A DNA stretch of 24,450 nt from a virus (IMGVR_UViG_2534681774_000030), one strand, 5' to 3'. Positions 2,734-20,756 are shown, numbered from the stretch's first letter. Notes: a model not told the origin generated them from the letters alone. Program-made: numbers and translations.

Positions 2734-2892
2734 TTGGTGTTCTTTCAGTTCTTCAATTCGAATATTGGTTATGTCTGCATGTGCTATCTGCGCCCATATC
2801 ATCCAGTGGTCATAGCAGTCATTGATGTTCTCTGCTTCGATAACTCTGTTGAATGGTTCTCCATTCCATTCACCTGTGACTCGGAAGTGCAT
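2725..2892 (-). CDS. Small hypothetical protein (55 aa) downstream of xis
   Basis: Manual translation on minus strand: MHFRVTGEWNGEPFNRVIEAENINDCYDHWMIWAQIAHADITNIRIEELKEHQAA; protein-like composition; I recall a 55-aa hypothetical gene at this position in lambda. Too short for the ORF track. Confidence 0.55.
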   Translation of the reverse strand: MHFRVTGEWNGEPFNRVIEAENINDCYDHWMIWAQIAHADITNIRIEELKEHQAA

Positions 2893-3134
2893 TTATCATC
2901 TCCATAAAACAAAACCCGCCGTAGCGAGTTCAGATAAAAGAAATCCTCGTCAGTGCGAGGATGCTGTTCATTGCTGCTATACACTTTTTTGCTCTCAACG
3001 TAAGCGGTAGCTCATTCTGTTGGGTTGGTGCAGTTGCTTTTAGGAAATGCTATTTACCCCTTAAACGTCGGCTGAAAGAGCTAAAATCCATGCAAAAAAT
3101 TTACGCAATTTTGTGTATTATTGTGCAGTAAGTA

Positions 3135-6885: not shown

Positions 6886-7018
6886 TTTTTGGGACTCCTG
6901 GCTGATTAAGTATGTCGATAAGGCGTTTCCATCCGTCACGTAATTTACGGGTGATTCGTTCAAGTAAAGATTCGGAAGGGCAGCCAGCAACAGGCCACCC
7001 TGCAATGGCATATTGCAT
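6854..7018 (-). CDS. cIII: Lambda cIII (FtsH inhibitor)
   Basis: Manual translation [54 protein letters not shown] (54 aa); below the ORF-track length cutoff. Confidence 0.9.
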   Translation of the reverse strand: MQYAIAGWPVAGCPSESLLERITRKLRDGWKRLIDILNQPGVPKNGSNNYGYPD

Positions 7019-7090
7019 GGTGTGCTCCTTATTTATACATAACGAAAAACGCCTCGAGTGAAGCGTAATTGGTATGCGGTAACGCCGCGC

Positions 7091-7478: not shown

Positions 7479-7505
7479 TAAAAAATCGCCCTCATCTTGG
7501 AGGGC
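7479..7505 (-). terminator. Intrinsic-terminator-like hairpin on the leftward strand (GCCCTC-caagat-GAGGGC then GATTTTTTAT)
   Basis: Perfect 6-bp GC stem plus T6 run on the minus strand, between the unknown 293-aa ORF and ea10. Confidence 0.5.
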
Positions 7506-7647
7506 AAAGAAGATTTCCAATAATCAGAACAAGTCGGCTCCTGTTTAGTTACGAGCGACATTGCTCCGTGTATTCACTCGTTGGAATGAATACACAGCGC
7601 TGTGTTTATTCTGTTGTTTGCGTGAAAATGAAATCCGCCTGAGCGGG

Positions 7648-8525
7648 TTATGACCACTTTTTGTTTGGGTTTCGTTGGTGAGCGTGGTTTACAGGATTAT
7701 TTGATATACCCCATAACTCTGACTCGCTTATCTCTACACGAGAGAAAGACCTGCTTTCTTTCAGTTCTTTTATAAACCTAGAACCTAAGATGACATCTAT
7801 TGTACCAGAAAGTTCTTGTAAAAGATCTATGTTTTTTCTGAGGAAGAAAATATCTTCTTTATATTTAATTTTTACATAGAATTTATTCTGTATTTTTAAT
7901 ATATCAAAGCATGGCAGATATCTATATCCCTCATATTTTCGCCACTGCTTAACAATTATAACATCTTTTTCATTTACTGCATTAATCAGCCCAAGACCAA
8001 GTACAGGTATGAATATTCTATTGTCTGCCGAAAGCGTACAATTATCACCACCAGGCAAATATGTATAAATCATGTCGGAATTTTTATACGCATCAACGAA
8101 TGCACGTAAGAAGCGTACATATTTTTGCCATCCGTTTATACCGAATTTACCATATAAGTATTCTTTATTTGTTAGAAGAAAACTATTTGTATCAGGATCC
8201 TTATCTACAGACCTGTCGATAAGATCTCCAACTACGTTTACAAAGTCAAAGACAGAGTTTAATAAGAACAATTGTCTTTCAGTAGGGCGAATTTCAATTA
8301 TGTAGCCAGGATGAAGACGATATTGCATCTGCTTACGAAGTATACCGAACGCTTGGGTCCGAGCATCTGAAAGCAACTTCTTGTCGCCATCGCCGTGAGC
8401 ATTGTTTCTAATAAAACTGATATAATTTGCTAATTTTTCAGCCTCTTTTTTGTGTTTTTTTCGCTCTGATGCTGAGTCTATTGGTTTTGGTATGGACTTG
8501 TAATCAATCTTCTTCATTACGTACC

Positions 8526-8529
<4 letters not shown>
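7648..8529 (-). CDS. Hypothetical AT-rich 293-aa protein at the ral/sieB position of the leftward early operon; candidate superinfection-exclusion or defence gene (probable true start at the second Met, 8517)
   Basis: Long uninterrupted ORF; its ATG overlaps the N stop codon (ATGA); a GAGGT Shine-Dalgarno precedes the second Met; Lys/Ile/Asn-rich composition contrasts with the lambda genes on either side; not recognisable as any lambda gene. Confidence 0.6.
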
Positions 8530-10616
<2,087 letters not shown>

Positions 10617-10621
10617 GTGGT
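10617..10621. repeat. Target-site duplication GTGGT (right copy) of the IS100 insertion
   Basis: See left copy. Confidence 0.8.
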
Positions 10622-10808
10622 ATTCAGCCAGCACCGTAAGGTCTATCGGATTCAGTGCGCTTTCTACTCGTGATTTCGGTTTGCGATTCAGCGAGAGAAT
10701 AGGGCGGTTAACTGGTTTAGCGCTTACCCCAACCAACAGGGGATTTGCTGCTTTCCATTGAGCCTGTTTCTCTGCGCGACGTTCGCGGCGGCGTGTTTGT
10801 GCATCCAT
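10617..10808 (-). pseudogene. N: N antiterminator, N-terminal fragment (codons 1-64), interrupted by IS100
   Basis: MDAQTRRRERRAEKQAQWKAANPLLVGVSAKPVNRPILSLNRKPKSRVESALNPIDLTVLAEYH matches lambda N, then reads into the IS terminus (CHERCNSDPH...). The two fragments minus one TSD copy sum to 324 nt, the length of lambda N. Confidence 0.9.
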
Positions 10809-11159: not shown

Positions 11160-12512
<1,353 letters not shown>

Positions 12513-17703: not shown

Positions 17704-18663
17704 TTAAAAAAAGAAGGTGATTGCTCCATTTATAAATGAATAGTCATCCCCTGTCTTGAATTCTGATGTTACTTTATTAAATGCTAGTGTGAAGGCTACA
17801 GGTGCATACCCAATTGTTGCGCCAACTTGATATTCATCAACAGTTTTGTTTAGCGATACTGTTGTTTGTTTCGTCTGTATTGTTTTTCCTTCGAGAGTAT
17901 AGTTGCGATTGACATCTCGTCTTTCCATACCTGCAAAAATCTTGTATTTGAATCCGCTTGTATCGGACATATGCATTAAACCACGGGGAGCCAGCAGACC
18001 AAAGCCATTATCCGAATTGAAGGTTTTATCATTACCAATGGCAATGGTTGCGCCATATGCTACATATTGAAATAAGTTTCCAGTAACAGCAGAAACTTCA
18101 GGGTATAATCCAACATTAGCACCTAAAATATCCATACTTGGTGTCATGGATAGCATCCCTTTTACAGTATAACCGTAGCGATTCTCTATTTGATCATCCC
18201 ATGCATGATATTTTTCTGCCCCAATAATCTCATGAGCTTTATTTTGTACTTTCTGACCGCCTGCGTCGGGGCCAACAACACCTATGTCAGTACCTAATCG
18301 ATAGCGAATCCAGTCATTCGCAAGGGAGTTCCATTCAATACCAGTGTGAGTGTATGCACTAAAAGCTCTGTCTCCAGTTACGGCTGTGTTGTGTCTTTTA
18401 TTACTGCCTGATGGAGAGTAAATATCTTGCGCAATATGGAGAGATAATTGGCTCGAGTCTGAGATATCGTGGCTATATCCCAGAAATAAGCCTTGTGAGT
18501 AATCATCTCTGTTTTCATGTTTATTGCCATAAATATCATTAAGTATTGGTTGAAACTTCCCTGCATCATCATTTGCTAATGATAATGCAAGGCTGTTCGC
18601 GATAGCTGAACACGTGGTAAATGACAGAGCAATAAAGACGCCAGCGATGACACTTTTTTTCAT
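17704..18663 (-). CDS. Outer-membrane beta-barrel protein (319 aa, signal peptide, C-terminal Phe); possibly LpxR-like lipid A 3'-O-deacylase
   Basis: Signal peptide MKKSVIAGVFIALSFTTCSAIA; alternating amphipathic beta-strand pattern; C-terminus ...AITFFF; the 319-aa size equals what I recall for the Salmonella LpxR precursor; AT-rich flanks. Confidence 0.6.
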   Translation of the reverse strand: MKKSVIAGVFIALSFTTCSAIANSLALSLANDDAGKFQPILNDIYGNKHENRDDYSQGLFLGYSHDISDSSQLSLHIAQDIYSPSGSNKRHNTAVTGDRAFSAYTHTGIEWNSLANDWIRYRLGTDIGVVGPDAGGQKVQNKAHEIIGAEKYHAWDDQIENRYGYTVKGMLSMTPSMDILGANVGLYPEVSAVTGNLFQYVAYGATIAIGNDKTFNSDNGFGLLAPRGLMHMSDTSGFKYKIFAGMERRDVNRNYTLEGKTIQTKQTTVSLNKTVDEYQVGATIGYAPVAFTLAFNKVTSEFKTGDDYSFINGAITFFF

Positions 18664-19900: not shown

Positions 19901-20039
19901 ATGCCCTGAGTTGTACTTGTACGGTAAACATGCTGGCTGCTATGTAATAGAGTTTTTTTAGCCTGTAACCTCTTGACGGCATTGAATTGCTTTTGTTATG
20001 AGTTGTAAGCCAATGTTATCATCTTGTATTGGGGTGGTT

Positions 20040-20756
20040 ATGAAGGATGGTGCGCTGCTCAGGAGTTCTTCACTTTTTATTGCCTACATGGGATGCCTTG
20101 GATGGGGGAGTGCTTATTTCTATGGATGGGGTACTTCTTTTTACTACGGCTTCCCATGGTGGATTGTAGGTGCAGGTGTTGATGATGTTGCCAGAAGTTT
20201 ATTTTTTGCAGTTATCGTCATTGCTATATTTCTTATCGGTTGGGGTATTGGTGTTGTATTCTTTTTCGCAGTGAAAAGAAAACATTCTATGCAAGAGCTA
20301 AATGTATTTCGCCTTTATTTTGCTGTGGAATTATTGTTTGTGCCGGCAATTATTGAGTTTTCTATATTGAGACAGAAGATTCAGGTACCTCTTTTGCTAC
20401 TGTCAGCAGCGATTGCGCTGGCGGTTACAATTTCGATAAGATCTTATGGGCGATTTTTATCGGTATCATGCTTCTATGATAAGCCATTTATAAAAAAACA
20501 TTTTTTTGAGATTGTGATGATTGCTTTTGTGGCATATTTTTGGCTTTTTTCATTTCTGACAGGATATTACAAACCACAGTTTAAGAAAGAATATGAAATG
20601 ATTAATTATAATGATGGTTGGTATTATGTTCTTGCTCGTTATGATAATTGTCTGGTTTTGTCTACTTCTTTCAATGCAGGTAGTAAAAGGTTTGTCATTT
20701 ATCAATCAGCACAAGATAAGAATCTTCAGGTTGATATTGTAAGGACCAGAATTTAA
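20040..20756 (+). CDS. Hypothetical polytopic membrane protein (about 238 aa) in the late-operon cargo slot between Q/tR' and nanS-p
   Basis: Start MKDGALL preceded by a GGGGTGG Shine-Dalgarno; Trp/Gly-rich N-terminus (GWGSAYFYGWGTSFYYGFPWWIVGAG) and at least four hydrophobic helices; AT-rich; unrecognised. Confidence 0.55.
   Translation: MKDGALLRSSSLFIAYMGCLGWGSAYFYGWGTSFYYGFPWWIVGAGVDDVARSLFFAVIVIAIFLIGWGIGVVFFFAVKRKHSMQELNVFRLYFAVELLFVPAIIEFSILRQKIQVPLLLLSAAIALAVTISIRSYGRFLSVSCFYDKPFIKKHFFEIVMIAFVAYFWLFSFLTGYYKPQFKKEYEMINYNDGWYYVLARYDNCLVLSTSFNAGSKRFVIYQSAQDKNLQVDIVRTRI

Follow-up and report, generated by a model that had tools for sequence, protein, structure and literature searches.

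The DNA analysed here, a stretch of 24,450 nucleotides of viral origin (the window), carries a λ-type pL operon in which the interval between N and ea10 is occupied by a single AT-rich gene. This is an open reading frame of 293 aa on the minus strand (7648..8529), with a GC content of 34.7%, the window as a whole having 46.8% and exo-bet-gam 51.5%. The same interval holds sieB, orf28 and ral in λ, where sieB is on the strand opposite to N and ral, whereas the single gene of the window is on the pL strand. In the DNA alignment, homology to λ restarts approximately 30 bp past the stop codon. A terminator-like hairpin followed by a T run (7486..7507, minus strand; terminator scan, terminator of the 434 record, λ alignment) lies between the gene and ea10, within DNA common to λ, and no gene-specific promoter stood out. 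Given its 290 codons in AT-rich DNA, and the existence of homologues at 36–68% identity, the frame is not a chance one.

Two start codons are available. The upstream ATG (8529-8527) overlaps the stop codon TGA of N (8528-8526), the tcat read on the plus strand at 8526-8529 being ATGA on the minus strand, and yields the alternative 293 aa form (7648..8529, minus strand). The second, Met5 of this long form (8517), is preceded at 5 nt by the ribosome-binding site GAGGT (8523..8527, minus strand), which extends across the N stop codon and is annotated likewise in the 434 record; it yields a coding sequence of 289 aa plus stop (7648..8517, minus strand). The PHROG 12139 profile spans residues 5-293 of the 293 aa form, and both the 434 annotation and all homologues likewise have Met5 as their first residue, so that the product likely starts there and has 289 aa. 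With either start codon, the gene is tightly coupled to N.

In the window, N itself is interrupted. Its 5′ part (MDAQTRRRERRAEKQ..., 64 codons, 10617..10808, minus strand) and its 3′ part (codons ~64-107 and the stop, 8526..8662, minus strand), recognised by translation and by comparison with the N genes of phage 434 and of the viral contig L019, are separated by a 1,954 bp IS100 element of the IS21 family, with istA and istB (8663..10616, minus strand). The insertion falls at codon ~64 of a 107-codon λ-type N, and a GTGGT target duplication is read at its ends (8658-8662 and 10617-10621). The element is 100% identical to annotated IS100 copies. L019, otherwise 99% identical to the window, has no IS100 and a collinear, uninterrupted N (blastn against the window); N is also intact in phage 434, where the same gene, CPT_434_48, has the same place from N to ea10. 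Because IS100 separates the gene from pL, the gene may be silent in the window. However, IS100 is oriented as pL transcription, so that read-through from the element could still reach it. The original prediction, made from the sequence, had described the long AT-rich frame in place of ral and sieB, its ATGA overlap with N, the GAGGT ahead of the second Met and the upstream break by IS100, and we found all of these as described.

Elsewhere in the window, Rfam recognised the cIII thermoregulator (Lambda_thermo, 6973-7031, minus strand, 88.5 bits), as expected for the leader of a λ-type cIII. A 158 aa ORF with a lipoprotein-like signal (11160-11636, minus strand) immediately follows the cI-like repressor gene, with the end of which it overlaps, at the position of λ rex and 434 hex; it had no Pfam match, and the arrangement is the same in L019. 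Two AT-rich, moron-like genes flank Q (17704-18663, minus strand, and 19998-20756, plus strand): one of the pair is a homologue of the LpxR-family outer-membrane lipid A deacylase (E 7e-40), the other a 252 aa ORF without Pfam match.

The gene had been thought assignable to no family, and this did not hold. Its product is 99.7% identical to CPT_434_48 (GenBank OL657226), which is labelled ‘Nun C-terminal peptide-containing protein’, and as a whole it belongs to PHROG 12139, a group whose database label is function unknown. Among 5,426 complete E. coli genomes, at least 83 contain the gene, annotated there as hypothetical, and the 90% cluster of the protein comprises 1,042 member sequences. The gene is therefore already known as a sequence, and its Nun tail had already been noticed by the 434 annotators. 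Defence classifiers had been proposed as a check; PADLOC matched no family at E 10, Pfam and NCBIfam gave no match for the protein, and 21 family members were without match in PADLOC and in Pfam, even at E 5 for the latter. A literature search retrieved no functional study of the 434 gene and no report of its fold or relatives, and the 434 genome announcement does not discuss CPT_434_48 (PMC9119081). Three points presented below appear unreported: that the tail is under selection throughout a diverged family, that the predicted fold resembles TnpB but has no nuclease, and that relatives with another tail exist in defence islands.

The last 14 residues of the protein, VNHAHQRNPNKKWS, are identical to residues 96-109 of the HK022 Nun protein, up to the C-terminus (14 codons plus stop, 7648..7692, minus strand). 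With some upstream residues, the ends read ...MHRVVNHAHQRNPNKKWS in HK022 Nun and ...SNNPVNHAHQRNPNKKWS in the window protein, and both proteins close with this peptide, which follows a disordered linker. Nun (PDB 6ALG, chain N) was the sole match of the protein in a phmmer search of PDB sequences, and PHROG 5632, ‘Nun-like transcription termination factor’, matched aa 274-293 of the ORF alone (E 7e-5). In the complex of Nun with RNA polymerase (RNAP), only residues 87-109 are ordered, and they hold all known arrest determinants; contacts are made by N97, H98, H100, R102, K106, K107, W108 and the terminal carboxylate, and Nun truncated by its last 13 residues no longer binds RNAP (PMC5386594). 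The tail of the window protein carries the seven contact residues as well as the terminal S109.

The likeness to Nun stops shortly upstream. H93 and R94, which contact the upstream DNA duplex in HK022 Nun (PMC5386594), are not conserved, their equivalents being N-N in the window protein, D-K in the homologue P0004 and G-Q in P0005, so that affinity for RNAP may be lower than that of Nun. Over its N-terminal 275 residues, the window protein has no relation to Nun, and no RRR-type motif corresponding to the N-terminal arginine-rich, boxB-binding motif of Nun is present. Instead, the window protein, with 289 aa versus 109 for HK022 Nun, has a basic helical hairpin and a folded module predicted to be WED-REC-like, described below.

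At the DNA level, the tail codons and approximately 30 bp past the stop form a mosaic module (7620..7692, minus strand; DNA alignments and blastn against phage records) common to the nun genes of HK022, HK75, mEpX1 and the PA28/Stx1a phages, and absent from λ. Identity with the nun genes begins abruptly at codon 276; in HK022, it extends approximately 75 bp beyond the stop, to an IS903 insertion. As the tail is placed at a mosaic recombination joint, its DNA near-identity to HK022 reflects a recent exchange rather than independent conservation. It could even be that recombination at a lambdoid mosaic joint left the tail behind as a functionless by-product, and that whatever the protein does resides entirely in the core and does not involve RNAP. 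Such a scar would fit with the abrupt start of identity, with its continuation in HK022 into shared non-coding DNA, and with the different tail borne by distant relatives.

The case for selection on the tail rests therefore on diverged homologues. Family members at 36–48% identity retain it (VNHAH-x-R-x-P-x-KKW) while their DNA has diverged, with many synonymous changes, which places the tail before the HK022 exchange; in those at 41–47% identity, the residues V, N, H, A, H, R, P, K, K, W and S are all retained. When the window is compared with the homologue in locus L015, eight of the 11 conserved tail codons differ synonymously. In the codon comparison, amino-acid changes were limited to the equivalents of Q101, N103 and N105, where Nun tolerates them; the N103A mutant of Nun is close to wild type in assay (PMC5386594). 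Synonymous divergence, together with the restriction of changes to these three positions, indicates purifying selection on the Nun determinants of the tail. A mere scar would decay, and this codon-level evidence makes the scar a quite improbable explanation.

A profile search of 1.84 billion representative proteins yielded only 24 relatives. When viral contigs were scanned for the tail pattern, 111 loci were found, in which the tail ends proteins of two architectures only, either of ~90–123 aa and bearing arginine-rich motifs of diverse kinds (Nun itself with its variants), or of ~290 aa, the family of the window gene. For this long family, an N-like gene ends between −5 and +11 nt from the start in 21 of 25 loci, and four types of N are found in this position, plus a fifth in L006. 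In L015 and L110 there is no N, and the long gene follows a leader homologous to the pL-putL region of HK022, at the exact position of nun. The long family thus occupies the Nun-type position at the head of the pL operon, either after put or directly after N. Short Nuns, too, are found directly after N, in 59 of 79 loci, and in the PA28/Stx1a phages a full-length Nun stands right after N, upstream of the same downstream DNA as the window gene. For these reasons the slot is the nun slot, of which the two architectures are positional alternatives; the window gene shares with HK022 nun its genomic position as well as its 3′ flanking DNA.

Several of these loci deserve a description of their own. 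In L015, the leader (2790-3115) lies between the repressor gene and the family member, and its put core is nearly identical to that of HK022, from which this metagenomic phage is judged to be put-dependent, the long protein replacing nun. In PA28 (NC_041935; L004, 2193-2546), RefSeq annotates a ‘Nun-like transcription termination factor’ of 45 aa. A full 109 aa Nun frame (MVKKTIYVNP...) is open directly after a 933W-type N in PA28 as well as in L005, so that the annotated start in PA28 looks too far downstream; in Stx1a phage records of the LC645429 type, the nun frame is unannotated. Among the short Nun-tail proteins (L018-L128), at least eight different arginine-rich motifs are found. In the loci compared, L061 and PA28, the motif of Nun differs from that of the N just upstream, L061 having a λ-like N beside a Nun that bears NSKNRRYKERGELIAKRK. 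This difference suggests a network of exclusion factors specific for N types.

The association with N raises the possibility that the protein is an early-lytic host shut-off factor, or a brake on the operon. Made together with N, it would arrest complexes lacking the antitermination modification of the phage, on host genes and perhaps also during late or leftward phage transcription, and the WED-REC part would provide a general affinity that is not sequence-specific. The translational coupling to N is kept across at least five N types, and no promoter particular to the gene stands out. Moreover, Nun alone arrests any elongation complex, with a Kd of about 300 nM, its tail by itself being able to bind any such complex, and is toxic when overproduced (PMC5386594); λ N occupies the entry path beside upstream DNA (PMC8632103). 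However, since the short arginine-rich Nuns, known from HK022 as sequence-targeted exclusion factors, are likewise placed directly after N, such coupling is not specific to a shut-off function. In addition, the L015 gene is in the HK022 nun position without any N, and a conserved folded module of 250 residues exceeds what general binding would need. We consider this explanation rather unlikely, but one to be kept in mind.

The body of the protein was modelled with AlphaFold2 (AF2) from a shallow alignment of 14 sequences (pLDDT 75.6, pTM 0.73). It is predicted to begin with a basic helical hairpin (aa 1-65, pI 10; 8323..8517, minus strand), made of helices 16-38 and 43-65, with pLDDT values of 83–95 over aa 11-60. 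According to alignments, this hairpin is specific to the phage Nun-tail subfamily and is lacking in relatives of the BREX type (see below). The core (aa 72-217; 7867..8304, minus strand) is predicted to contain a strand, a four-helix REC bundle and the WED beta strands, and this arrangement, over aa ~72-217 of the model, matches the WED-REC fold of TnpB and Cas12. After the last WED strand (aa 217), only two helices (aa 223-258) and a disordered C-terminus follow, including an acidic linker (aa 259-275; helices and linker at 7693..7851, minus strand); pLDDT is below 50 from aa 249. A linker motif, S-R-S-F-S-R-V-E-I-S, is common to both subfamilies.

The resemblance of the core to TnpB and Cas12f comprises the predicted order of elements, strand, helical bundle and beta strands, and some look-alike short motifs (L-x-P-x-x-x-Q-x-x-x-L, I-P-x-L-G and a ‘kFYVkI’ hairpin). 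The assignment comes from predicted structures with pLDDT 75.6 and 63.6, built on shallow alignments (14 sequences). Homology to TnpB was not established at the sequence level, profile comparisons being insignificant: the family profile had no match among PDB sequences, TnpB included, the Pfam families OrfB_IS605, HTH_OrfB_IS605 and OrfB_Zn_ribbon matched neither the protein nor the 21 members, and hhalign of the family with a small alignment of TnpB N-termini covered 27 columns at a probability of 2.9%. We therefore file the core as TnpB/Cas12-like in predicted fold, and not as a member of the TnpB family. The differences are also substantial. The RuvC domain with its D-E-D triad is missing entirely, beyond mere inactivation, as no RuvC-containing region aligned and the protein is too short to hold one; the zinc finger, or target-nucleic-acid-binding domain, is absent as well (no CxxC pairs, two cysteines in all). 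No omega RNA or guide RNA and no transposon ends were found adjacent to the ORF. Finally, no protein of the TnpB family is reported to bear an RNAP-arrest peptide such as that of the window protein.

Much of the guide-RNA interface of TnpB is provided by the RuvC domain. This bears on the idea that the protein works like TldR or dCas12f, two cases in which the TnpB lineage was recruited to transcription control, in prophages among other places: a guide RNA, bound by the WED-REC part, would pair with target DNA, where RNAP would then be stopped by the tail. The predicted fold does belong to RNA-guided proteins, the structural matches include a dCas12f that works with the transcription machinery, and truncated, nuclease-dead homologues of TnpB (TldR) keep RNA-guided binding (bioRxiv 10.1101/2023.11.30.569447). 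Against this stand the lack of any RuvC remnant and of family-specific non-coding DNA at the 434-type, L015 and BREX loci. Downstream DNA of the 434 type is common to λ and nun loci, and the non-coding gap is 46 bp in L015 and 23–35 bp in the BREX operons. Rfam, applied to the window region and the loci of relatives, returned nothing relevant, only the λ cIII thermoregulator and matches at chance level. We give a guide-RNA mechanism hardly any credence.

Beyond the phage family, relatives at 17–26% identity keep the core and the motif preceding the tail, and end in a different tail, GG-x4-GK(K/R)R, typically GGLPSLGKRR. The GGLPSLGKRR tail corresponds to no motif known to us. Three related clusters of these genes lie between brxC and pglX in BREX operons, as confirmed by PADLOC models, and are 17–20% identical to the window protein. 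One relative has NYN, RelA/SpoT, PLD and helicase genes as its neighbours in an island. A scan of GTDB genomes gave one relative, in Dechloromonas, without defence neighbours, and the contexts of further distant relatives are short and uninformative. In the light of the Dechloromonas relative, the link to BREX amounts to one operon lineage and one defence island.

The BREX operons concerned (L007, L011, L012, L013) have an unusual gene order: brxA, brxB, brxC, the WED-REC relative and pglX, followed by two genes (376 and 423 aa), an HSP70-family gene and a second pglX. In L011 and L013, a WYL regulator and an ADP-ribosylglycohydrolase gene precede the operon. At another locus (L130), the distant relative P0052 is followed by more than 1.1 kb without called genes (8790-10398), made of complex repeats, with ~245 bp segments at a spacing of 1,214–1,215 bp and a 62 nt unit present three times; these repeats had no Rfam match.

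λ Ral modulates restriction-modification, and the slot of ral in λ is that of the window gene. Could the gene be an anti-defence mimic, a phage copy of a BREX-associated host protein interfering with that system in a way comparable to Ral? The relatives of its core between brxC and pglX, and the one in the NYN, RelA/SpoT, PLD and helicase island, would make this plausible. However, the BREX-linked relatives are 17–20% identical only and come from one lineage of similar operons, the Dechloromonas relative is without defence neighbours, and selection on the Nun determinants would be left unexplained. The window gene is itself part of a lambdoid pL operon and not of a brxA-brxB-brxC-pglX operon, and no member of the family is covered by a PADLOC model. 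To our knowledge, no such component exists in the BREX system of E. coli. On balance, we view mimicry as very improbable.

We favour the interpretation that the product of the gene is a transcription-arrest exclusion factor of the Nun type, modular in build and with a new part for targeting, and we give this interpretation a probability of about 55%; the whole case is computational. As with HK022 Nun, the tail VNHAHQRNPNKKWS would thread into the active-site cleft of E. coli RNAP, beside upstream DNA, and cross-link the enzyme to DNA and RNA, so that translocation would no longer occur. A disordered linker of ~20–30 residues would tie the tail to a folded module of ~250 residues with the WED-REC core. 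This module would take the place of the arginine-rich boxB-binding motif and select the elongation complexes to be arrested, most likely by binding a nucleic-acid feature, which could be a structure in the nascent RNA or, at the upstream edge of the bubble, duplex or fork DNA. Like Nun, the factor would serve to exclude competing phages.

Phage 434 and the prophage of the window depend on N and nut of the λ type, and would thus be open to attack by a canonical Nun. The target can therefore not be λ boxB, and must differ from that of HK022 Nun. The gene is co-transcribed with N from pL, whereas exclusion of the classical kind would need expression in lysogens. RNAP modified by put reads through Nun-dependent signals (literature), from which complexes modified by N or put may be immune to the arrest. 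The pL complexes of the phage itself, modified before they reach the gene, would then be spared, and this immunity would also explain the conserved placement of the gene behind N or put.

Exclusion was already the leading idea of the original prediction, which had proposed a single-gene exclusion or abortive-infection function from the typical content of this slot, but had noticed neither the Nun tail nor the TnpB-like fold. The exclusion part stays the leading idea, but on another basis, the exact Nun arrest peptide and the nun position, while nothing was found in support of abortive infection. The N-ea10 interval of the λ pL operon is indeed a moron-type slot for functions directed against competitors or host defences, and the window gene shares it with ral and sieB; in sequence and fold, the protein is unrelated to Ral and SieB.

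A wider interpretation may be put forward, tentatively, as possible though not probable: the proteins of a hitherto unrecognised WED-REC family without nuclease would serve to insert C-terminal plug peptides, exchangeable between members, into host machines. For the lambdoid phages, this plug would be the Nun tail and the product an RNAP jammer, in which a TnpB-derived reader replaces the arginine-rich motif; for some of the BREX operons and defence islands, it would be GGLPSLGKRR.

Nun is the textbook case of exclusion of one phage by another through jamming of RNAP, and its targeting has been tied to the arginine-rich motif and λ boxB. Here, the same arrest peptide is found on a wholly different and much larger module, and this in a classical phage, 434, as well as in 83 or more complete E. 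coli genomes. If our interpretation is correct, the arrest peptide can act as an effector that moves between proteins, and exclusion among lambdoid phages forms a network that goes beyond N versus Nun. The predicted WED-REC fold would point to a possible further route of TnpB exaptation, in which the nuclease half was lost and a polymerase-blocking tail gained. The relatives in BREX operons tie the family to that defence system and, if GGLPSLGKRR also blocks a polymerase, they would provide a concrete starting point for testing by what means these variants of BREX act against phage.
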